Sequence record: MT446408.1
DNA from: Escherichia virus TH35
Length of the DNA stretch: 64,000 bases
Reading direction: 5' to 3' (one strand)
Both the position numbers and the translations under genes were made by a program. Shown here in pieces: positions 2,970 through 56,490 of this stretch; positions within the stretch are counted from its first letter, which is position 1; every line of letters starts with the position of its first letter. The notes under the pieces are model-generated. The model was not told where the DNA came from, made no database searches, and saw only the letters and a program-made list of their open reading frames with translations.

Positions 2970-3959
2970 ATGAAACAACCTGTAATGATTATCGGCGGCG
3001 GTTTGGCAGGACTTATTACCGCGTGTCACTTCCCGAACTCCATTGTGTACGAAGCAGGGGAACGAGCGCCACAGCACAAGGCGCTGCTACGCTTTCGCGG
3101 CGAAGAAGTAAGCCGTATTACCGGAATCCCTTTTAAGGCCGTGACAGTCGATAAGGCTGTGTATTTTCGTGGTAACTACTATCACGACCACTGCCCGATT
3201 AACCTTGCCAACATGTACTCTATGAAAGTCACCAACCAGTTTGGCAGCCGCTCAATCATGAAGCTTCAAACCGCTACGCGCTACATAGCGCCGGATGACT
3301 TTTATGATCAACTTGTCGATAAGCTTGGCGACCGTATATTCTTCAATACTCCGGTCGACACCCTCTGCGGCTATAGCGAGACGCCAATCATCAATACATC
3401 GCCGCTGCCCGTCATGATGAAGCTTGCTGGCATTGATCAAAAGCTCGACTTCTCGTTTGATAAGGCAAATATACGCGTTTATCGTTTTAAGATTAAGCGC
3501 AAGTGTGAACTGTATCAAACAATTTACTTCCCTGACTATTCTGTAAGGACTTACCGCGCATCAATTACTGGTGACACGCTGATTATCGAAACAATTCCAT
3601 TGGTAAGCGTCAGCGCGGCAGCAGTTGAAGCCGCTGGCGGCATTACCCGTTATCGCGACATGAAGTTGCGTGCAGAAGTGGACGAAGTTCTGACCGCTTT
3701 TGGTCTTTCATGGAATGACATCTCTTTGGAAGAAGTTGAAAAGGTTGACCAGAAGTATGGCAAGATTGTCGACATTCCTAAAGACTTGCGCCACGCCTTA
3801 CTGCTCCAGCTGACTATGGATTTGAACGTGTTTAGTGTCGGTCGATTTGCTACATGGCGCAACATCTTGCTTGATGACGTAGCTCATGACCTTGTTGAAG
3901 TTGAAAAACTCATCAAAGCAAATAACTATCAAAAATTTGCTTATATTGCTAATAAATAA
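2970..3959 (+). CDS. FAD/NAD(P)-binding Rossmann-fold oxidoreductase
   Basis: N-terminal GxGxxG dinucleotide-binding motif VMIIGGGLAGL; start taken at second ATG (2970) for RBS spacing, track start 2964. Confidence 0.6.
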   Translation: MKQPVMIIGGGLAGLITACHFPNSIVYEAGERAPQHKALLRFRGEEVSRITGIPFKAVTVDKAVYFRGNYYHDHCPINLANMYSMKVTNQFGSRSIMKLQTATRYIAPDDFYDQLVDKLGDRIFFNTPVDTLCGYSETPIINTSPLPVMMKLAGIDQKLDFSFDKANIRVYRFKIKRKCELYQTIYFPDYSVRTYRASITGDTLIIETIPLVSVSAAAVEAAGGITRYRDMKLRAEVDEVLTAFGLSWNDISLEEVEKVDQKYGKIVDIPKDLRHALLLQLTMDLNVFSVGRFATWRNILLDDVAHDLVEVEKLIKANNYQKFAYIANK

Positions 3960-38134: not shown

Positions 38135-39553
38135 TTATTCCCCTTTCAACCAAGCTTCAAACGCTTCGTCAGTTGCTGCAGAATCCGCAGCGGCCTTTTG
38201 TTTTGCGACTACACGCTGTTTTTGACCGTGTTCAACGCCGCGCAGATAATTATCCACCACGTCAAACTCAGCACCATCAACGCACTTCAAGCCTAACTTT
38301 TTAGCGCCATATTTCGCTACGGACTTGGAGTCCATAGTTGCATGATCAAAGGCACCAACAACTTTAGACAGGCGCTGGTAGAGGCTATTCTTACGAGCAG
38401 AATCAGCGTAGAAAGCAGCAACTGCTGAATCAGATGCCATTGAGTGTTCCCCTTTTGCTGGACCTGGCGACGCTTTCGCCGCTTTTGTCGGTTTGTCATC
38501 TTTTTCGACCGAAGCCCCCTTTACGTTGCTGTTTTGCAGGCCGCTAACCACATCTTCAGCTTTGTCGCAAGGTGATACATCTTCAGCCTTGACTTCAACT
38601 TCTTCGTCTTTGACTTCGGCTTCAACTTCTTCTTCATCACCTACCGCGCCACCTTTCAGTTTTGCAATAAGTGCTTCGATTTGGCTGATCAGTTGCGGAA
38701 GCTCGCCGCCAGCGTGAGATTCAGTTTCAACTTCAAACTTCTCTTCACCTTCTGGAGTCTCTTCAGCTTCTGCTTTGACTTCTGGATCAACCATCACTTC
38801 TTCACGTTCTTCGGTTGAATCCTTCTCTTCTGCTTTCACTTCAACTTCGTCCTGATGAGCAGCTTCGGTGCTCTCTTCATTCAGAAATTGTTCGAGCGCA
38901 GGGATCAGTGATTTCAGCTGTTCAACAGCATTATCACGCGCTTTACCTTTTAACGGTTTTGGCATGTCTAAATCCTCGTTGGATGGTGTTACAGTCGTCA
39001 AACAAAGATGGTCAAAGCAACGACCATCCAGCACCCGTGCACCTGGTACTCGACCAACGTCCACGAGAGCAATGTGGTTGCCGCGAAGAGTTGTCTGTAC
39101 CACTTCATACGGCTGCCCGTCAAACTCTCCAGACTGTATGATGAATTCACAGTCATAGCCCAAAGACAAGTCAACCTTTCCAGAATCGATGGCCTTCTTC
39201 AGACGACGGCTAAAAACTTTAAGGTCGCCGCGCATCCATGGCTTGTCATAATAAACATTGCCAGTTAGAACGCCATCAACGCCATACTCTTCGGGTGCTG
39301 TGTTATCCTCATCACCTTCGAATCCAGAAAGCATTTCGTGATTGTCGATGAAAGGGATATTTTTGAATGAATCTATCGCTTCGGGGTCTTTCACCGCTGA
39401 CTCTGGGCGATAAACTTTTACGATGCGATTCGGATCACCATCAAGTCCAACCTGACCTGCAGAATAATCAAAAATGCCAAATGACGAAATGGGACAACCC
39501 ACAATCGTCAAGAATCCATTTTTGTCAATTTCGCGTGCCGTTTGCATTCGCAT
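38135..39553 (-). CDS. putative prohead protease/scaffolding fusion protein
   Basis: globular N-terminal domain followed by Glu-rich low-complexity region (EVEVKAEEKD...EEKFEVETE). Confidence 0.5.
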   Translation of the reverse strand: MRMQTAREIDKNGFLTIVGCPISSFGIFDYSAGQVGLDGDPNRIVKVYRPESAVKDPEAIDSFKNIPFIDNHEMLSGFEGDEDNTAPEEYGVDGVLTGNVYYDKPWMRGDLKVFSRRLKKAIDSGKVDLSLGYDCEFIIQSGEFDGQPYEVVQTTLRGNHIALVDVGRVPGARVLDGRCFDHLCLTTVTPSNEDLDMPKPLKGKARDNAVEQLKSLIPALEQFLNEESTEAAHQDEVEVKAEEKDSTEEREEVMVDPEVKAEAEETPEGEEKFEVETESHAGGELPQLISQIEALIAKLKGGAVGDEEEVEAEVKDEEVEVKAEDVSPCDKAEDVVSGLQNSNVKGASVEKDDKPTKAAKASPGPAKGEHSMASDSAVAAFYADSARKNSLYQRLSKVVGAFDHATMDSKSVAKYGAKKLGLKCVDGAEFDVVDNYLRGVEHGQKQRVVAKQKAAADSAATDEAFEAWLKGE

Positions 39554-39659
39554 CCACCCTCAAATAAGTATTGTGTATTATATCTAATGAAAAAAACTTA
39601 GGCAAACAATAATTATGGTTTGAATATGTATAACAACCGATATAGCCGCGCCTTAATTA

Positions 39660-39930
39660 GTGTGATACGGATGATACGGATAAAATGAGGCGTATTTTTA
39701 TCCGTATCGGTGTATAAGCCGCGCTATCACTGGTGTGCTACGGATGATACGGATGATACGGATACTTTTCATATATAAGAGTTTATAAAAAAAAATAAAA
39801 TTAAATTAGATATATAATTTTAAATTAATTTATTTGAATTCCTATAAAGTATCGCGGCAACGCGTATCATCCGTATCATCCGTAAGATTCTTTTGAAAAC
39901 AACTACTTACTTGATACGGATGATACGTCA
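39660..39930. repeat. iteron-like region: TACGGATGA/GATACGGAT 9-bp repeats in inverted clusters around an AT-rich core
   Basis: GATACGGATGATACGGAT 39664-39681; ATCCGTATC 39700-39708; (TACGGATGA)x3 39739-39766; AT-rich 39770-39850; GTATCATCCGTATCATCCGTA 39864-39884; GATACGGATGATACG 39913-39927. Confidence 0.6.
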
Positions 39931-39971
39931 TTATACGCGTAAAATCCTGCGGCAATCCATTGCCAGGCGAT

Positions 39972-40119: not shown

Positions 40120-41040
40120 TTAGTTCAACTTAATTGCGGTGATCTGTCCGTAAACGGTAGATGTCAATGCGTCTGTGCATTGATAGTTTAGATACACGTT
40201 GCCAGGCGCGGCAAGAGTAATTATCTTTGTTGGAATATTGCCGCCGAAACGACCTGCAGCCCGAATGCCAGCAGACATCGTGAATGCATCATCCGTAATA
40301 TCTGAATTACTTGTTGACAATTTTACTGTAATTCCGGTATTCGCTTGAACTCCTTCTGTTGCTACAGTCAACTGACTTGCTGTCACAAGCCATTTCCCTG
40401 CAGGCAGGTTTAATGTTGCCAGATTCACCAGAGTTGTCGGAGGATTGCTTACACTATTGCTTGTGTTTTGCACATTGCTTGCAGCAGCATTAAGAACTCC
40501 AGAACCATCAATTGATAGTGTCGTTCCTACTTTTACGCCACCCAAGGTTGATGCTGATGCAATCGGTAACGAGTATTGAGTAACACTAATTGTACCGTCA
40601 CCTGCAACACTTATGCCACTTCCTATCTTGACGCCGCCGAGAATAGAAGCCGTTGCCGCTGGTAACGTGTATTGGTTGCCGCTGGATTTGACTACCTTAA
40701 CGGCGACAGCATTCTTGGAACCTCCAGACTCCATGCCTATAATCACTGCTTCTCCAAAAGCGATGGTGATTGTAGATGCAGTTAAACCAGTCTGCACGTC
40801 TGTTATGTTCATTTTGGGAACTGAAAGTGTCAGATTCGGCTTGCTGGTAGAATCGCCATCATTACCGATCATAAAGAATTGACCAACTGAATTGTATCCA
40901 GACGCCAATGGCGGACTCAATGGAACAATCAGGTTTTTATCGGATGTAAATTCTGAAACAATCGCCAAACCGTTAGCATATACAGCAGGCAATACTGGCG
41001 TTTGTCCAGATAGAGGAAACGTGCTGATTGGTATCGTCAT
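40120..41040 (-). CDS. fiber-like protein with tandem LGGVK repeats
   Basis: repeats YTLPAATASILGGVKIGSGISV / YSLPIASASTLGGVKVGTTLSI; start set at ATG 41040. Confidence 0.55.
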   Translation of the reverse strand: MTIPISTFPLSGQTPVLPAVYANGLAIVSEFTSDKNLIVPLSPPLASGYNSVGQFFMIGNDGDSTSKPNLTLSVPKMNITDVQTGLTASTITIAFGEAVIIGMESGGSKNAVAVKVVKSSGNQYTLPAATASILGGVKIGSGISVAGDGTISVTQYSLPIASASTLGGVKVGTTLSIDGSGVLNAAASNVQNTSNSVSNPPTTLVNLATLNLPAGKWLVTASQLTVATEGVQANTGITVKLSTSNSDITDDAFTMSAGIRAAGRFGGNIPTKIITLAAPGNVYLNYQCTDALTSTVYGQITAIKLN

Positions 41041-41047
41041 AATGACC

Positions 41048-41899
41048 TCAAATGATTGGTATTTTTCTGCACTTGCAGTGTATTGCCCATCCAGGAGGAC
41101 CGATGTCACCCTTTTTGAACTTCAATTCGCCGCCAACTTCCCATAGGCGCTTGTCATCAAGTTTGAATCTCATTCCGTCGACGTGTTCATGAGAGATTCG
41201 CGGCTCCTTTCCTGCTCCTGAGTGCGCCCACTCAAATTCTTCGACTCCATTCTGGCGCATCCTTTCATCGCTTAGAACGCAATACAATTTGCTTGTCTGG
41301 TCTTTAGCGATCAAGTCGACTCTCTTTGCAGAGAAGTGTTTTACGTTTCGCAATGCCGCCTGAATGCCTGACGTGCCTTGCTGGGCTGGGTCGGGAGAAG
41401 TCAGCGAAAGCATGACTGCTTCGTACACTCTGTTGTGAATATCCTCGCCGACCTTAGTCACTAGAGTCGTGTTAAACTTCTCGCTTGTTCTAAGAGTGTT
41501 CTCAACGAATTTGTTATATGTGGCCTTTGGCGCTTCTATGCCTGCGGACTTAAGGCTTGCGAATGTAGCAGAAGTGGCACCCTTTTCGACCGATTTGATA
41601 AAATCAGCGGCAATCTTCGACCCAACACGTGCAAACGCCTTTGCCCATTTCAGTTGCAGCCGTTTCATAAGGGTCTGGAATGTCGAATCAGCAGAGTCCT
41701 GCGCAAAAAACTTCTGCACCTGCTTCTTGTCAAGCCATTCTGAAATGCCTGCCTGATAGTCATCAATCATCGCATAGCAAAGACCTTTCATCTCACGACG
41801 GTAGGCCATCGCAATAGCGTTTGATGGGATTATCGGACTGCCGCGCCCGATTCTATCGGGTGAGCGGCGTTCACGTTTTTTCGAAGCTTTAAAAGCCAT
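41048..41899 (-). CDS. Mu F-like / SPP1 gp7-like minor head morphogenesis protein
   Basis: C-terminal ...WAIHCKCRKIPII (H-x-C-x-C) typical of Mu F family; directly follows portal; start at ATG 41899. Confidence 0.65.
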   Translation of the reverse strand: MAFKASKKRERRSPDRIGRGSPIIPSNAIAMAYRREMKGLCYAMIDDYQAGISEWLDKKQVQKFFAQDSADSTFQTLMKRLQLKWAKAFARVGSKIAADFIKSVEKGATSATFASLKSAGIEAPKATYNKFVENTLRTSEKFNTTLVTKVGEDIHNRVYEAVMLSLTSPDPAQQGTSGIQAALRNVKHFSAKRVDLIAKDQTSKLYCVLSDERMRQNGVEEFEWAHSGAGKEPRISHEHVDGMRFKLDDKRLWEVGGELKFKKGDIGPPGWAIHCKCRKIPII

Positions 41900-52142: not shown

Positions 52143-52212
52143 TGGGTGGATGTTGCTTTAACCGTGAATCGTGGGTCGCTGTGGCGGCCCTTTATTTTGC
52201 CTGCCGCGCAGG

Positions 52213-52325
52213 AGTGTACTGCAAATTTACTGTGGGCACAAAATAGTACGGTACTGTCTAGGACTTTTTCTTTGAAAAGTTAGTGGACCAAATGTGTCGT
52301 ATTTTGATTAGTGTACTGCAAATTT
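52213..52325. repeat. two copies of AGTGTACTGCAAATTT, variant of the ATAGTGCAAAT family
   Basis: identical 16-mers at 52213-52228 and 52310-52325. Confidence 0.6.
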
Positions 52326-52414
52326 CATCAAGTACCAAAACGCACCAAAAGACCCATGCCCTAAAAACCACACGAACGCAATAATCAATCGCCGTTACAG
52401 TTTCCAGCGTTACA

Positions 52415-52674
52415 ATTCGAAAGCGAATGATTCGATACACAATAATATGAAGCATAATGATTCGAAAGCGAATGATTGCGTGTAGTATAATATCGGTGGG
52501 GATTATTCTAGATGCATGTAATTTCGCATGCGTACTATTTTCGGACGAAGGGTCGGCATATTCCTCGTTTTAGTTCGGAACGAAGGGAAAGTTTTGCGCC
52601 TTTATAAAACAACGACTTACGCAACCCGCCCTAACGGTCCGATATAGGTGTCTATATAAAACAAGGACTTACGC
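52415..52674. repeat. short direct repeats in a non-coding stretch
   Basis: ATTCGAAAGCGAATGATT at 52415-52432 and 52460-52477; TATAAAACAA[C/G]GACTTACGC at 52603-52622 and 52655-52674; recurring CGAAGGG words. Confidence 0.5.
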
Positions 52675-52840
52675 GATGTTCTCCATTTAACGTAATACCC
52701 GTTATGCGAACTAAGGAGCATCTCGAAGAAGATTATGAGGCGACGAAGGGAAGGATAAAGGAGTTTTCGCGGAGAAGCGCATCGAGATAGGGACGAAGAA
52801 AAGCCGCGACTAAGCGCGGCCTATTAGTAACGGAAGGATA

Positions 52841-53131
52841 TTATAAGGAGACAATTTTAAAATAAGTTACTTCGCCGCCGAGTTGCGGTACAGCGATATA
52901 TTCGCCGCCGATTTCGGTAATCGTATAAACGAAGCCGTTAATCGTTACGCGATAGGATACGATGTCCTCGTCGCGATACTTGTAAAGGTCGAGGAAGTTG
53001 ATCGGCTCATAAATAGACTCGATAATCGCGTCGACGTTAGAGAGATAAACGCTCTCTAAGGTTTCGCCAAATACGTTAGAGTTTTCGGAAGTTTCGACGC
53101 GAGCGGAACGGATAGCGGCTAAAGTAATCAT
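52841..53131 (-). CDS. small protein, paralog family member A (96 aa)
   Basis: MITLAAIRS... similar in N-terminus and overall pattern to 53767-54051 and 53239-53541; AGGAG RBS. Confidence 0.5.
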   Translation of the reverse strand: MITLAAIRSARVETSENSNVFGETLESVYLSNVDAIIESIYEPINFLDLYKYRDEDIVSYRVTINGFVYTITEIGGEYIAVPQLGGEVTYFKIVSL

Positions 53132-53155
53132 AATAATCTCCTAGTTGGTCGGGCG

Positions 53156-53176
53156 GGTAGCGACCTATTCGCTACC
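53156..53176 (-). promoter_or_regulatory. conserved 5' UTR stem-loop (copy 1)
   Basis: on coding strand GGTAGCG-AATAGGT-CGCTACC preceded by GGGATGAG; same loop and architecture as copy at 53721-53741 with compensatory stem changes. Confidence 0.5.
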
Positions 53177-53198
53177 TCATCCCCTCTCGATATAAAAC

Positions 53199-53227
53199 AT
53201 TATAGTATTAGTGTACGAAGAAGTAAA
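53199..53227 (-). promoter_or_regulatory. sigma70-like promoter for 52841-53131
   Basis: reverse strand TTTACT (53227-53222) - 17 bp - TATAAT (53204-53199). Confidence 0.55.
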
Positions 53228-53238
53228 GCACTTTTTCG

Positions 53239-53541
53239 TTATTTTGCGATAAAATGTTTATAAGCTTTATCGCCTTCTACGTCGATATACTCGACGATAA
53301 TTAACGCTTCGTCGCGAGGCGTAACCGTCTCGATAAGGGTAACGGCTTCGTCGTCGGTCTTCGCGAAGCGGATGGCGCTACGTTCGGCGTATTTCATATC
53401 GTCGAAGGAAAGGCCGACGAAGGCGAACGCGCGGACCTTAATAGCGGTCCCGTCTAGTTCCGCGTTAACGGCTTTAAGAAGAGAAGCGACGGTTAAGCGG
53501 TCTTCGTCGTAAGTAAGGATAGAAGAGATTAAAGTGGTCAT
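53239..53541 (-). CDS. small protein, paralog family member B (100 aa)
   Basis: start set at ATG 53541 after GGGAG RBS (track start 53598 is TTG and overlaps the promoter); MTTLISSILTYDED... Confidence 0.45.
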   Translation of the reverse strand: MTTLISSILTYDEDRLTVASLLKAVNAELDGTAIKVRAFAFVGLSFDDMKYAERSAIRFAKTDDEAVTLIETVTPRDEALIIVEYIDVEGDKAYKHFIAK

Positions 53542-53597
53542 AATAAAACTCCCGATGCTAGTAGAAGGAAGGGCCATCGCCCGTCTCGATATAAACA

Positions 53598-53625
53598 AGT
53601 ATACGCGAGTGTACGAAGAAGTAAA
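53598..53625 (-). promoter_or_regulatory. sigma70-like promoter for 53239-53541
   Basis: reverse strand TTTACT (53625-53620) - 16 bp - TATACT (53603-53598); near-identical to promoter at 53199-53227. Confidence 0.5.
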
Positions 53626-53679
53626 GAAAAAAGATAAAATAATTTATCTCATTTTTATCGAAAAAGTGCTTTACTTTTT

Positions 53680-53707
53680 TCTACACTATATTATAATGTA
53701 CTCATAT
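53680..53707 (+). promoter_or_regulatory. sigma70-like promoter for 53767-54051
   Basis: TTTACT (53680-53685) - 16 bp - TATAAT (53702-53707); shares CTTTACTT...TACAC core with the two reverse promoters. Confidence 0.55.
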
Positions 53708-53710
53708 CGG

Positions 53711-53748
53711 GACGGGATGAGTTAACGAATAGGTCGTTAACGCCCGTC
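53711..53748 (+). promoter_or_regulatory. conserved 5' UTR stem-loop (copy 2)
   Basis: GACGGGATGAG-GTTAACG-AATAGGT-CGTTAAC-GCCCGTC immediately upstream of AGGAG RBS. Confidence 0.5.
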
Positions 53749-53766
53749 GAGAACTAGGAGTTTAAA

Positions 53767-54051
53767 ATGGCTATTCTTAACGTTTCTTCCATCCGTAACG
53801 CTATCGTCGAGAACTACGGCGTAAAACAAATTTTATCCGAAGTCTACGCCGCGAACGTAGACCAAACTATCGAGGCAGGTGGGGTAACGGTCGCCGAGGC
53901 TTTTAAACTTTACGCGGCGCTACCGGAATCGGACCGCGAAGCCTTCGAAGTAAACGTTAACGGATACTTCTTCGAAGCGGTCGAAATCGGTAACACCTTA
54001 CTCGTTATGGGCGAAGAAGAATTTGAGACCTTCTCCCTCGTCGAAGCGTAA
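53767..54051 (+). CDS. small protein, paralog family member C (94 aa)
   Basis: MAILNVSSIRNAIVE...; paralogous to 52841-53131 (shared NVD..IE, VNG.F, EIG, E.E.TF positions). Confidence 0.5.
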   Translation: MAILNVSSIRNAIVENYGVKQILSEVYAANVDQTIEAGGVTVAEAFKLYAALPESDREAFEVNVNGYFFEAVEIGNTLLVMGEEEFETFSLVEA

Positions 54052-54131
54052 GAGAGGATTTTTAGAGCGTCGTGCGCGACGCTTTAATAAAATTCTTTCG
54101 CGCCTAGCGCCCTAACAAATAGGAGTTTATT

Positions 54132-54758
54132 ATGGTTAGCTTAAATCGTTTCTCGACTAGCGGCGACGTTATCGCAACTAAGACCGCCGACCTCGTTGCA
54201 TTTTATAATGCAAATTCCGGTTCGAAGCCGATTAAGAAATTTTCGGACCGCCGGACCGCCGAGGCTCGCGTAATAGCGTTAATCGAGTCCTTAAACGCGC
54301 TCGATGAGCCGTCCAACGAATCGCCCATCCCAGACGCGAAGTCGCGCGAGGAAGTGCCCAGCGATGTAAAAACGCATAAGGCGCGTGCGGTCGTTAAAAA
54401 GTCCGAGCCGACCCAGGAAGAACTCGACGCGATGACCGACGAAGAGTATGAAGCCTTCGTTAAGAGCGGTTTAAACGATAGTGCAAATTGCGTAGTGCAA
54501 AATGGAACTCCTTCCCATCGCCGTTCAAATAGCGAAGGTATTGCGAAAAGTTGGGATAACAAGGAAGTGGCGCAAAAGCGTCTCACGCGTAACGGCGTTA
54601 TGGTCGAGGGTGTAGGCGAGTTCAAATCGGTCCGCGTAGCGTTTGCTGCGCTGGGCTTACCGGATAGCAAGCACATTCGCTTCCGCATGAAGCTTAAAGA
54701 AGCTGGACGATTGAACTTTGAGTTCGGCAACAAGTCCTACACCTTCCAGATCATCTAA
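54132..54758 (+). CDS. hypothetical protein (208 aa)
   Basis: ORF with AGGAG RBS; hairpin at 54064-54081 upstream; contains first ATAGTGCAAAT copies. Confidence 0.5.
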   Translation: MVSLNRFSTSGDVIATKTADLVAFYNANSGSKPIKKFSDRRTAEARVIALIESLNALDEPSNESPIPDAKSREEVPSDVKTHKARAVVKKSEPTQEELDAMTDEEYEAFVKSGLNDSANCVVQNGTPSHRRSNSEGIAKSWDNKEVAQKRLTRNGVMVEGVGEFKSVRVAFAALGLPDSKHIRFRMKLKEAGRLNFEFGNKSYTFQII

Positions 54759-54808
54759 TCGAATGGCGGCCCTTCGGGGTCGCTTTTCATAGTGCAAATT
54801 GGTGGCTT

Positions 54809-55072
54809 ATGAATACGCTTATTCTTATCGCTACGTTGTCCATCGGAAGTGGTCGCACCTTATCCCTTTATGATCATAGTGCAAATTGCGCTTACCCAAC
54901 GCGCGTTGCGGTGATAGTTAATAGTGCAAATCGAATGCTATTCGAGACTTGTTGGCGGGTCGATAACGAGAAAGGTCGGGTAGTCTTAGGTTATAGTGCA
55001 AATCTGCTGGTGGAGTCGTTCGATTGGACGGTTGAAGGCCGTAAATTGTTACGGAAAGTGACTAAAAGATGA
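54809..55072 (+). CDS. doubtful ORF spanning three in-phase repeat copies
   Basis: 87-aa ORF whose HSANCA, NSANRM and YSANLL segments are each encoded by an ATAGTGCAAAT copy; may be non-coding. Confidence 0.3.
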   Translation: MNTLILIATLSIGSGRTLSLYDHSANCAYPTRVAVIVNSANRMLFETCWRVDNEKGRVVLGYSANLLVESFDWTVEGRKLLRKVTKR

Positions 55073-55133
55073 CTTATAATAATACACTTTCTAACGCGTT
55101 TATGGTTGTAACCTTCCCCGTCGTATTACCGAT

Positions 55134-55173
55134 GGCCCTAGAAGTGGAGAAAATGTGTTCTAGGGCCGTTTTA
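55134..55173 (+). terminator. rho-independent terminator for the forward unit
   Basis: GGCCCTAGA (55134-55142) / TCTAGGGCC (55159-55167) 9-bp stem followed by GTTTTA. Confidence 0.5.
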
Positions 55174-55186
55174 TAGTGCAAATTGG

Positions 55187-55675
55187 CTAGTGGCGGGAGA
55201 ATTGCTCACCTTCTTTGGCCGCCTCTCCAAAATCCTTGTAGAAATCGTCCATAGAACGGCCCATTTTACTATTGCCGTTTTCATCAATCATCGTGATGCC
55301 GTAGATGATATTCAGTTCACGAATAGCATTAAGCTTGGCTGATGCCGCGACTTCTGGATCACGCACAAGCTTGACCAAATTGTGAATTGCACCTTTTACG
55401 CTCCACAAATCCTTTAGCGGCATTTCTTCCATACGCTTTTTGAAGCGCATTTTGTAGTACGGATTGCGTTGTGCGCAAAGGATTCGCTGGCCAGTGTAGT
55501 TATCCGTTGCAACTTCCATTCCAAATACTAGTGCAAAAGCTGCGCGCATGTCATGGCCCTGAATAACAAGGTCAATGAACTCATCGAATAAGGCCTGATT
55601 GTGCTCTGCAAATCGCGGGTCTTCAAAGTCTTCAGGCATCGCTACATAGTCTTGACTCATAGTGCAAAATCCCAT
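55187..55675 (-). CDS. hypothetical protein (162 aa)
   Basis: ORF; start codon region itself formed by two ATAGTGCAAA copies (reverse strand ATGGGATTTTGCACTATG). Confidence 0.5.
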   Translation of the reverse strand: MGFCTMSQDYVAMPEDFEDPRFAEHNQALFDEFIDLVIQGHDMRAAFALVFGMEVATDNYTGQRILCAQRNPYYKMRFKKRMEEMPLKDLWSVKGAIHNLVKLVRDPEVAASAKLNAIRELNIIYGITMIDENGNSKMGRSMDDFYKDFGEAAKEGEQFSRH

Positions 55676-55889
55676 AGTGCAAATTAATAGTGTGAATTAT
55701 ACAATGGATGAACATTATATTCAAGTGCAGATTGATGTTCATTATGGCTATAAACGTACACAAATCATATTGCGGAATGAATAGCGGACCGTGGTGCGTG
55801 GTGTACTGTTTGATACGTATAAAAGAAATCCATCCCTTTCGCCGCTTGTTATGCAAATCAATGACTTAGCCGCTGCTGGCTGGTTTAAG

Positions 55890-56230
55890 CGTATCATGAC
55901 GTATCATCCGTATTGCCGCAAGTCTTTGTTTTTACTTATATCTTACGGATAATACGTATAAATATAAGTTTAGTATAAGTATGAGGATATGAAAAAAATT
56001 AATTTAAATGTTTTTAAAATGGAGTTTATTTATTTTTGGAGTTTTATATATAACGATGCCCAGTTTTATCCGTATCATCCGTAAGATTAATGTACAAGCC
56101 AGGCGCGGCAAGGGCTGTACACTGATACGGATAAAAAAACATGACGTATCATGACGTAAGGGTGTACCACTTTGGAAAAGAGGAATCCAGGAACGGTGCG
56201 GCCTGCAGCCATGATACGCTTAAATTTTAG
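55890..56230. repeat. second iteron-like region, related to 39660-39930
   Basis: GTATCATGACGTATCATCCGTAT 55891-55913; AT-rich core 55960-56060; TTTTATCCGTATCATCCGTAAGATT 56064-56088 shares 21-mer ATCCGTATCATCCGTAAGATT with 39864-39890; GATACGGAT 56124-56132. Confidence 0.6.
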
Positions 56231-56490
56231 CCGTATTTTAGGCGTATCAAATGTGTGCAAACAACACGTTTCACGACACTAAAATTTCAATCCATAGATA
56301 ATTCCTAACAAACACCACGGACCAATAGACACGATCTATGAAATATATTTCTAAATATTTCCGCACAATTAATAAATAAAACACAACCTCATAATTATTC
56401 CATCGCAAAACACGACCCAAACGACAAAAGGCCGCATAAAGCGACCCATTGCACACATTCCATTCTTCAAAACACACAAATCAATGTTCT

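Follow-up and report, generated by a model that had tools for sequence, protein, structure and literature searches.

Two intergenic modules in the 64,000 nucleotides of sequence record MT446408.1 (Escherichia virus TH35), a stretch of DNA hereafter called the window, share an architecture in which arrays of short repeats (iterons) converge from both sides on an A+T-rich core. The reading we favour, with about even confidence, is that both modules are replication origins of the type used by the Rep proteins of Staphylococcus aureus pathogenicity islands (SaPIs) and by the alpha protein of phage P4. The iterons would be read by the C-terminal winged-helix domain of the phage's own Rep, a VapE-like, self-loading superfamily-3 helicase. 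Judged from the records of close relatives, module 2 also appears to contain the physical left end of the virion DNA, at the boundary of a direct terminal repeat, which the original prediction, made from the letters of the window, had missed. The window belongs to a Wifcevirus, a PB1-like E. coli myovirus, and shows 98-99% identity to FEC19, ECML-117 and WFH over 38-42 kb. The full genome measures ~68.3 kb, of which the window lacks ~4.7 kb, and its orientation is opposite to that of most deposited records.

The iteron unit is GATACG(G/T)AT, repeated within an array at a spacing of 9 bp, sometimes 10 bp, with ~13-14 units per module (Table 1). In module 1, units of the GATACGGAT type start at 39664, 39673, 39737, 39746, 39755, 39913, 39922 and 39932 on the top strand and at 39688 (weak), 39700, 39860, 39869 and 39878 on the complement. 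The corresponding starts in module 2 are 55812, 55942, 55951, 56124 and 56213 on the top strand and 55887, 55897, 55906, 56068, 56077, 56142, 56152, 56229 and 56240 on the complement. Next to the core, three top-strand units face three complement units across core 1, and two face two across core 2. The repeat clusters of the original prediction are all present in the sequence, and so is the A+T stretch that they flank. Its second region of the same architecture was borne out too, although the repeats extend further than described, from 55812 to 56248. The exact 21-mer said to be common to both regions exists and was correctly placed in module 2 (56068-56088), but its position in module 1 was off by two nucleotides and is really 39869-39889.

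Allowing up to one mismatch, GATACGGAT has 23 matches in the window versus 10.1 ± 3.3 in shuffled sequences, and none of 100 shuffles reached 23. A motif search elsewhere in the window, proposed as a check of the original prediction, placed all copies of ATGATACG (11/11) inside the two modules. For the looser motif ATACG[GT][AC]T, 15 of 19 matches fall within 1.02 kb, i.e., 1.6% of the window. The complete genome of the relative Bas99 has 17 of its 23 TGATACG matches in the same two modules, which points to exactly two modules per genome. When 80-bp segments of the window are ranked by A+T content, the cores come first and second. Nearest-neighbour duplex stability calculated over 100 bp amounts to -99.7 and -102.6 kcal/mol for the cores, as compared to a window mean of -137.9 ± 8.0 kcal/mol. 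The two cores are thus the lowest-stability 100-bp segments of the window, more than four standard deviations under the mean.

Module 1 is 97% identical across four Wifcevirus genomes. In a four-way alignment of module 2, the half on the side of the terminal repeat is conserved and the other half has diverged with its ATACG units kept. A gap of ~500 bp with an A+T core and repeats likewise precedes the head protease gene in Pantoea phage Kyle, Serratia phage MyoSmar and the Pbunavirus phages APTC-PA18 and 14-1. The flanking repeats of these relatives have a period of 8-9 bp and a sequence that differs by genus; at the equivalent of module 1 they read GGTTATT / GGAATAACC in Kyle, TACTTTTCG in MyoSmar and AATTGGTA / GGTAATT in Pbunavirus. 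The repeat of each genus (GATACGG in Wifcevirus, GGTTATT in Kyle, TACTTTT in MyoSmar, GGTAATT in Pbunavirus) clusters at the same two loci, the second of which lies upstream of the small terminase gene terS. Pbunavirus has both modules and is reported to package its DNA by a headful mechanism with permuted ends (PMC12390725), so the architecture is independent of terminal repeats.

A metagenomic survey of further relatives yielded 47 loci with the helicase gene and 80 with the protease gene, and 22 contigs were in both sets. The region upstream of the protease gene and module 2 had lineage-specific 8-mers in common in 17 of these 22 contigs, a score reached by none of 300 control segments. Iteron orientation in 16 other lineages broadly fits arrays flanking the core on both sides, some of the motif definitions being poor.

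The relatives encode a Rep of 556 amino acids with a VapE-like domain (Pfam) at residues 189-407, as well as a RepB-type primase. According to the complete genome of a relative, rep is located 844 bp past the right edge of the window, inside the missing 4.7 kb. The Rep sequence matches that of SaPI1 Rep1 with DNA (PDB 7PDS, E 7e-11). An AlphaFold model calculated with 56 homologues (mean predicted local distance difference test score 89) exhibits at residues 436-504 a C-terminal winged-helix topology of the order H-beta-H-H-beta-beta. The best Foldseek matches of this model in the PDB are six 7PDS chains (E 3.5e-16, ~480 columns), far ahead of the NrS-1, SaPI5 and poxvirus D5/E5 helicases.

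SaPI origins comprise 6-12 penta- or hexanucleotide iterons directly downstream of rep; their centre is A+T-rich and is flanked by no fewer than two iterons per side, in opposite directions, and the SaPI Reps read the iterons via their C-terminal winged helix (PMC9371898). A 19-bp duplex described in the same work holds two iterons, which fits the period of ~9 bp seen here. Compared with the SaPI origins and Rep structures (PDB 7PDS, 7OLA; PMC9371898), the phages likewise have a VapE/superfamily-3 helicase with a C-terminal winged helix (in the relatives), a separate primase, and multiple short iterons split by an A+T centre with at least two opposed units per side. In most related phage lineages the module also lies directly downstream of rep, and iteron sequence and C-terminal domain diverge between elements as they do among SaPIs. 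The differences are that the host of the modules is a virulent 68-kb myovirus and not a satellite, that there are two modules, 16 kb apart, and that the unit is 7-9 nt long with a 9-bp period and more copies. In addition, 8-9 kb lie between rep and the module in Wifcevirus, the terminal-repeat boundary falls in one module, which adjoins terS, and Rep has 16-17% identity to SaPI1 Rep1 over the structural alignment. The iterons of 17-22 bp and the RepA or O initiator of iteron-plasmid and lambda-type origins, which usually also have DnaA boxes, are not seen: the units have a 9-bp period, and the Bas99 annotation contains no RepA- or O-type initiator. In phage P4, one helicase-initiator, alpha, has a C-terminal DNA-binding domain and reads short repeats at two loci, ori and crr. 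P4 is a precedent for two iteron loci bound by one helicase-initiator. It differs in that alpha fuses primase and helicase, that 4.5 kb separate ori from crr, and that these loci lack symmetry about a long A+T core.

In the mechanism that we propose for both modules, Rep would bind the arrays of 2-3 iterons that converge from each side on the 85-100 bp A+T core. The presence of converging arrays on both sides suggests that the core could be melted by two helicase rings assembled there in opposite orientations, and the RepB-type primase and the phage polymerase would then start synthesis at the melted core. At module 2, the left end of the 3.75-kb direct terminal repeat would be made as well, and origin and packaging signals appear to be combined. 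A replication origin had been the first suggestion of the original prediction. This suggestion has gained considerable circumstantial support from the helicase homologue, the SaPI-like layout, the lineage-specific repeats at two loci and the adjacency to rep in most lineages.

The gene order around module 2 involves two candidate readers of the iterons, Rep and TerS. The A+T core is located between rep and terS, in a gap of at most 1.4 kb, in 20 of 28 non-redundant lineages, an arrangement also found in SaPIs. Five Wifcevirus-like lineages have the core 340-530 bp from terS and rep 4-9 kb away. In the remaining three (L036, L059 and L062), the core follows rep at 60-310 bp and terS is 1.9-3.2 kb away; L059 has 10 of the 12 iteron cores found in 21 kb within 360 bp after the rep stop codon. 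By its position, the module thus looks like the central element of a cassette rep-module-terS, and whether Rep or TerS reads it cannot be told from adjacency alone.

Sequence variation leans towards Rep, whose winged-helix region evolves faster than the rest of the protein (mean pairwise identity 0.23 versus 0.54 for the ATPase). The helix-turn-helix of TerS, in comparison, is only slightly more variable than the core of that protein (0.34 versus 0.42), and its putative recognition helix varies between genera as well. In the lineage pair L048/L050, homologous tandem iterons have undergone a concerted change from AGTTGAC to AGTTGGG. The two TerS proteins are identical from residue 4 on except for one residue, located N-terminal of the helix-turn-helix, and the two Rep winged helices share 77% identity. 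The solved TerS homologue of phage E217 showed no appreciable DNA binding in vitro (PMC9611059), which, together with the winged-helix variability and the L048/L050 pair, leans towards Rep as the reader. Pairs with apparently common k-mers, such as L046/L061 with CAACTAT, show background-level identity in both domains. The relative SRR26188688 (75% Rep identity) was rejected as a discriminator, its GATACG core, Rep winged helix and TerS helix all being kept. As a separate observation, a single TGATACG unit is located 11-17 bp upstream of the rep start codon in Bas99 (L009 14764-14770); it may be there by chance, as no equivalent was seen in Kyle.

A number of observations weigh against the modules being origins. 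The position directly downstream of rep that is typical of SaPI origins is not found in this Wifcevirus, where ~8.8 kb separate the core from the rep stop codon; in general, phages of the Wifcevirus and Kyle type have the module 4-9 kb from rep and always 340-530 bp from terS. The virion end inside core 2 is direct evidence for a role in packaging, not in replication. With 7-9 nt, the conserved core of the iteron is longer than SaPI iterons, and a detectable module 1 is missing in 5 of 17 lineages (L046, L054, L056, L059 and L062). Over 720 locus pairs, similarity of iteron k-mers correlated weakly, and to a similar extent, with identity of the Rep winged helix (Spearman coefficient 0.14) and of the TerS helix-turn-helix (0.20), and the pair that discriminates between Rep and TerS (L048/L050) is one case only. 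Cumulative GC skew, proposed as a check of the original prediction, is likewise without an origin signal: its extremes, at ~18, 43 and 55.5 kb, mark strand switches, and the curve does not inflect at 39.7 kb. Since these extremes coincide with switches in gene orientation, and skew follows transcription, the measure is uninformative on origins.

The position of the virion end was taken from the records of relatives and not from this isolate, and the A+T-rich sequence could bias such boundary calls. The WFC record contains an exact terminal duplication of 3,784 bp, and its first nucleotide corresponds to window base 56020, in the middle of core 2. In Mansfield, whose record was opened at the boundary that PhageTerm predicted for the terminal repeat (PMC6753283), the first nucleotide is the same one as in WFC. 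In Kyle, the record start is also inside the A+T core of the equivalent module. In MyoSmar, the boundary predicted by PhageTerm (position 3559) is at the edge of the equivalent core, among its repeats and ~40-90 bp from the core. Four relatives, among them the one with just 75% Rep identity, all have TAACTCC^ATTTT unchanged at the left end, and TAACTCCATTTT around the end is invariant in the Wifcevirus alignment. The right end of the terminal repeat at ~52267 is without TACGGAT units, and no deposited record begins in module 1.

These ends make packaging either a strong competitor of the origin reading or an additional function of module 2. In the competing form, which we regard as unlikely, the repeats are recognition sites for TerS and module 2 is the packaging initiation site, terminase cutting in the A+T core to generate the left end; module 1 would then be a duplicated, uncut or regulatory TerS-binding site. 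Module 2 does have two features of a terminase site, as the start of terS is 360 nt from the left-end base and the virion end in the relatives' records is inside the module. A terminase recognition site should also be unique, and here the same repeats occur in two modules. The end lies in the core in WFC and Mansfield and in or near it in Kyle and MyoSmar, the sequence around the cut is invariant, and Wifcevirus-like lineages keep the module with terS when rep is displaced. Moreover, the putative TerS recognition helix differs between genera, and ring-shaped oligomers could plausibly read tandem sites ~30 Angstroms apart. Module 1, however, has the same arrays and a stronger core, yet no record begins there and no terS is nearby. 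Pbunavirus, though reported to be headful, has both modules, and in L059, L062 and L036 the module is 1.9-3.2 kb from terS. The failure of E217 TerS to bind DNA appreciably and the L048/L050 pair, in which the iterons changed and TerS did not, also argue against TerS as the reader. On balance, module 2 would serve as origin and packaging site at once or, with lower probability, for packaging only, its repeats being read by TerS.

The pac sites of phages SPP1 (pacL-pacC-pacR) and P1 are found at terS or beside it. Each has a central region where the DNA is cleaved and groups of short repeats on both sides, and the virion end arises between these groups; the sites are unique in the genome and serve headful packaging. 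The modules described here differ in that the same repeats occur at a second locus without an end, and in that the relatives have exact direct terminal repeats of 3.75 kb. A further set of tandem repeats, TTTGCACTATG / TTCACACTAT, overlaps the promoter and the start of terS in Mansfield (L015 290-370, by homology ~55650-55730), with 2-3 copies there and 6 copies in the SRR26188688 relative (L016 15090-15220). These repeats, comparable to pacR in position, may be a protein-binding array in their own right.

Returning to the origin reading, its module 2 might be linked to end formation by a coupled model that we put forward only tentatively and consider rather improbable as a whole. Rep would open core 2, primed synthesis would copy the 3.75-kb repeat, and terminase, whose small subunit is encoded 360 nt away, would cut the melted or forked core at TAACTCC^ATTTT to form the left end. 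Each concatemer junction would carry two copies of the terminal repeat. The block of rep, origin and terS would then amount to a portable 'replicate-and-package' cassette, an idea that fits a satellite-like Caballeronia element which bears an integrase and carries the same three parts. This element is integrated in the chromosome of Caballeronia sp. AZ10_KS36 (GCA_023631105.1; L017, 2503-7859) and consists of an integrase, small genes, a VapE-like Rep, a 640-bp gap and a TerS homologue (27% identity), in that order. The gap contains GTAACTC / GAGTTAC repeats with a 9-bp period. The element looks like a satellite or an element resembling phage-inducible chromosomal islands, built on the same rep-module-terS cassette. 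It had also been considered as a case of rep without terS and was rejected as such, since it carries both genes and allows no discrimination.

The right end of the terminal repeat has sequence elements of its own. It is midway between two direct copies of AAATTTGCAGTACACT, at 52326-52311 and 52229-52214 (minus strand; region 52212-52326), and a CAGTACACTAATCA element is conserved near the equivalent right boundary in Kyle. These AAATTTGCAGTACACT/CAGTACACTAATCA elements may direct the second cut by terminase. Positions 52400-52480, just within the right end of the repeat, contain several copies of GAATCATT / AATCATT. Because Kyle has AATGATTA / TAATCATT repeats at the equivalent place, the GAATCATT-type motif is kept between genera, unlike the iterons.

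A third explanation, to which we assign a somewhat lower probability than to recognition by TerS, takes up the alternative of the original prediction that the repeats are operator arrays. The arrays would be operator or enhancer sites for a phage transcription factor that co-regulates the sigma70-type promoters of the protease operon and of terS, and the A+T core would serve as a bendable or UP-like element. Sigma70-like promoters are indeed found downstream of both modules on the coding strand, i.e., the minus strand. We compared these with the transcription starts determined for Pbunavirus 14-1 by Oxford Nanopore Technologies (ONT)-cappable-seq (supplement, bioRxiv 10.1101/2023.10.13.562163). 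The start P014 (13257) maps to the sigma70 promoter below module 1, which is homologous to the promoter in the window. P040 (59399) fires from the A+T core of module 2 across the tandem repeats, with GGTAATTTGGTAATTTGG repeats in its -35/spacer region, and P041 is located just upstream of terS. P040 is compatible with a regulatory role and also with transcription-assisted opening of an origin. Co-variation of the repeats at two loci would fit any shared trans-acting DNA-binding protein.

The geometry of the modules argues against such an operator function, as 13-14 sites over 280-440 bp around a melt-prone core of 85-100 bp would be unusual for an operator. In module 1, 59 bp separate the -35 element from the nearest iteron upstream of it, and ONT-cappable-seq of 14-1 detected no start within that module. 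No candidate regulator was identified, whereas a homologue of an iteron-binding helicase is encoded. As to the genes thought to be controlled, region 1 is upstream of the scaffold and capsid genes as predicted, in an operon that begins with the head maturation protease, but region 2 precedes terS and not generic early genes. The origins of T7 and T4 combine a promoter with an A+T-rich unwinding element, and in T7 the origin and end-processing signals lie close together. The promoter that fires from the A+T region of the Pbunavirus module 2 homologue resembles this arrangement; we know of no iteron arrays and no dedicated iteron-binding initiator at the T7 and T4 origins.

A fourth explanation seems very improbable, namely that a host protein, be it nucleoid-associated or a replication factor, binds the repeats, or that they are structural DNA (cruciform, bent) without a dedicated reader. 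The inverted arrays could in principle extrude, and one integration host factor (IHF) consensus is present at the edge of module 2 (55856-55868). Neither module, however, contains a DnaA box (TTWTNCACA), IHF consensus matches are not enriched across the window (7 versus 4.35 expected), and a unit that changes in concert at two loci and by lineage speaks for a reader that is encoded by the phage and co-evolves with the repeats.

A full-text literature search found no origin, pac site or mechanism of end formation described for PB1-like phages, and no published description of the present modules. The PB1-like phages (Pbunavirus, Wifcevirus and relatives) belong to those most often employed in phage therapy, and Wifcevirus reportedly has an extremely short latent period. 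If both modules are origins, they would provide defined origin sequences and a cognate initiator for the entire phage group, and the self-loading-helicase type of origin would extend from SaPIs, satellites in Gram-positive bacteria, to virulent Gram-negative myoviruses. The genera would then offer a natural set of orthogonal pairs of iteron and winged helix. Module 2 would further supply a concrete model for how long exact terminal repeats are made, a process whose mechanism is, to our knowledge, unsettled for most such phages. For rebooting or engineering of these genomes, it would be advisable to keep both modules and the exact end at 56020.

Table 1 Features of the two iteron modules and their surroundings in the window (strand left empty where none applies).
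Feature	Position	Strand	Remark
Head maturation protease gene	38135..39553	-	downstream of module 1
Module 1	39554..39971		intergenic gap within head-gene cluster; 13 iteron units around A+T core
Sigma70-like promoter TTGCCT-17-TATAAT	39577..39605	-	head protease operon; 59 bp from nearest iteron
2 tandem iterons GATACGGAT	39664..39681	+	9-bp period
Iterons AATACGCCT (weak) and GATACGGAT	39688..39708	-	
3 tandem iterons	39737..39763	+	directed at A+T core 1
A+T core 1	39767..39852		91% A+T; least stable duplex segment of window; candidate DNA-unwinding element
3 tandem iterons	39860..39886	-	directed back at A+T core 1; contain 21-mer common to module 2
3 tandem iterons GATACGGAT, GATACGTCA, TATACGCGT	39913..39940	+	
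Direct terminal repeat, ~3.75 kb	52267..56020		single collapsed copy; deduced from relatives
Small terminase gene terS	55187..55660	-	start 360 nt from genome end at 56020
Module 2	55676..56270		intergenic gap; 14 iteron units around A+T core
2 overlapping sigma70-like promoters	55696..55741	-	upstream of terS
Single iteron GATACGTAT	55812..55820	+	
3 tandem iterons	55887..55914	-	
2 tandem iterons	55942..55959	+	directed at A+T core 2
A+T core 2	55961..56060		81% A+T; second least stable duplex segment of window
Base matching nucleotide 1 of virion DNA	56020	-	left end of direct terminal repeat in WFC and Mansfield
2 tandem iterons	56068..56085	-	directed back at core 2; begin shared 21-mer
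1 top-strand iteron (56124), 2 complement iterons (56142, 56152)	56124..56160		
Outer iterons	56213..56248		56213 top strand; 56229, 56240 complement

Module 1 is flanked on one side by the genes for portal, a head morphogenesis protein and a head-fibre-like protein, and on the other by the operon of head maturation protease, scaffold and capsid. Next to module 1 on its upstream side is a gene (40120-41109, minus strand) with a weak head-fibre-protein domain (Pfam PF11133, E 1.6e-7), which in relatives carries the annotation head fibre in some cases and tail fibre in others. The neighbours of module 2 are the final gene of a long block of small early genes and, on the minus strand, terS. A Pfam scan of TerS and the neighbouring small proteins gave no matches, and TerS was identified only via a phmmer match to the E217 small terminase (PDB 7UXE, E 6e-34) and the Mansfield annotation of the protein as TerS. 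An Rfam scan of the entire window returned no family that reaches its gathering score.

Dense repeat arrays were also observed in metagenomic relatives, with 11 copies of AAGGTTACA in 435 bp, 13 copies of ATC[CG]GATA and at least 10 copies of AATTGACGTA (loci L056 11435-11869, L037 6824-7625 and L059 11393-11790). Another word, GCGGCAA, has 48 copies in the window versus 12.7 expected, on both strands and in every codon phase. GCGGCA / TCGCGGCA elements recur within the modules of Wifcevirus, Kyle, MyoSmar, Pbunavirus (at a spacing of 58 bp) and the Caballeronia element. One idea is that these elements are primase or single-strand-initiation sites, the word itself being over-represented across the entire window.

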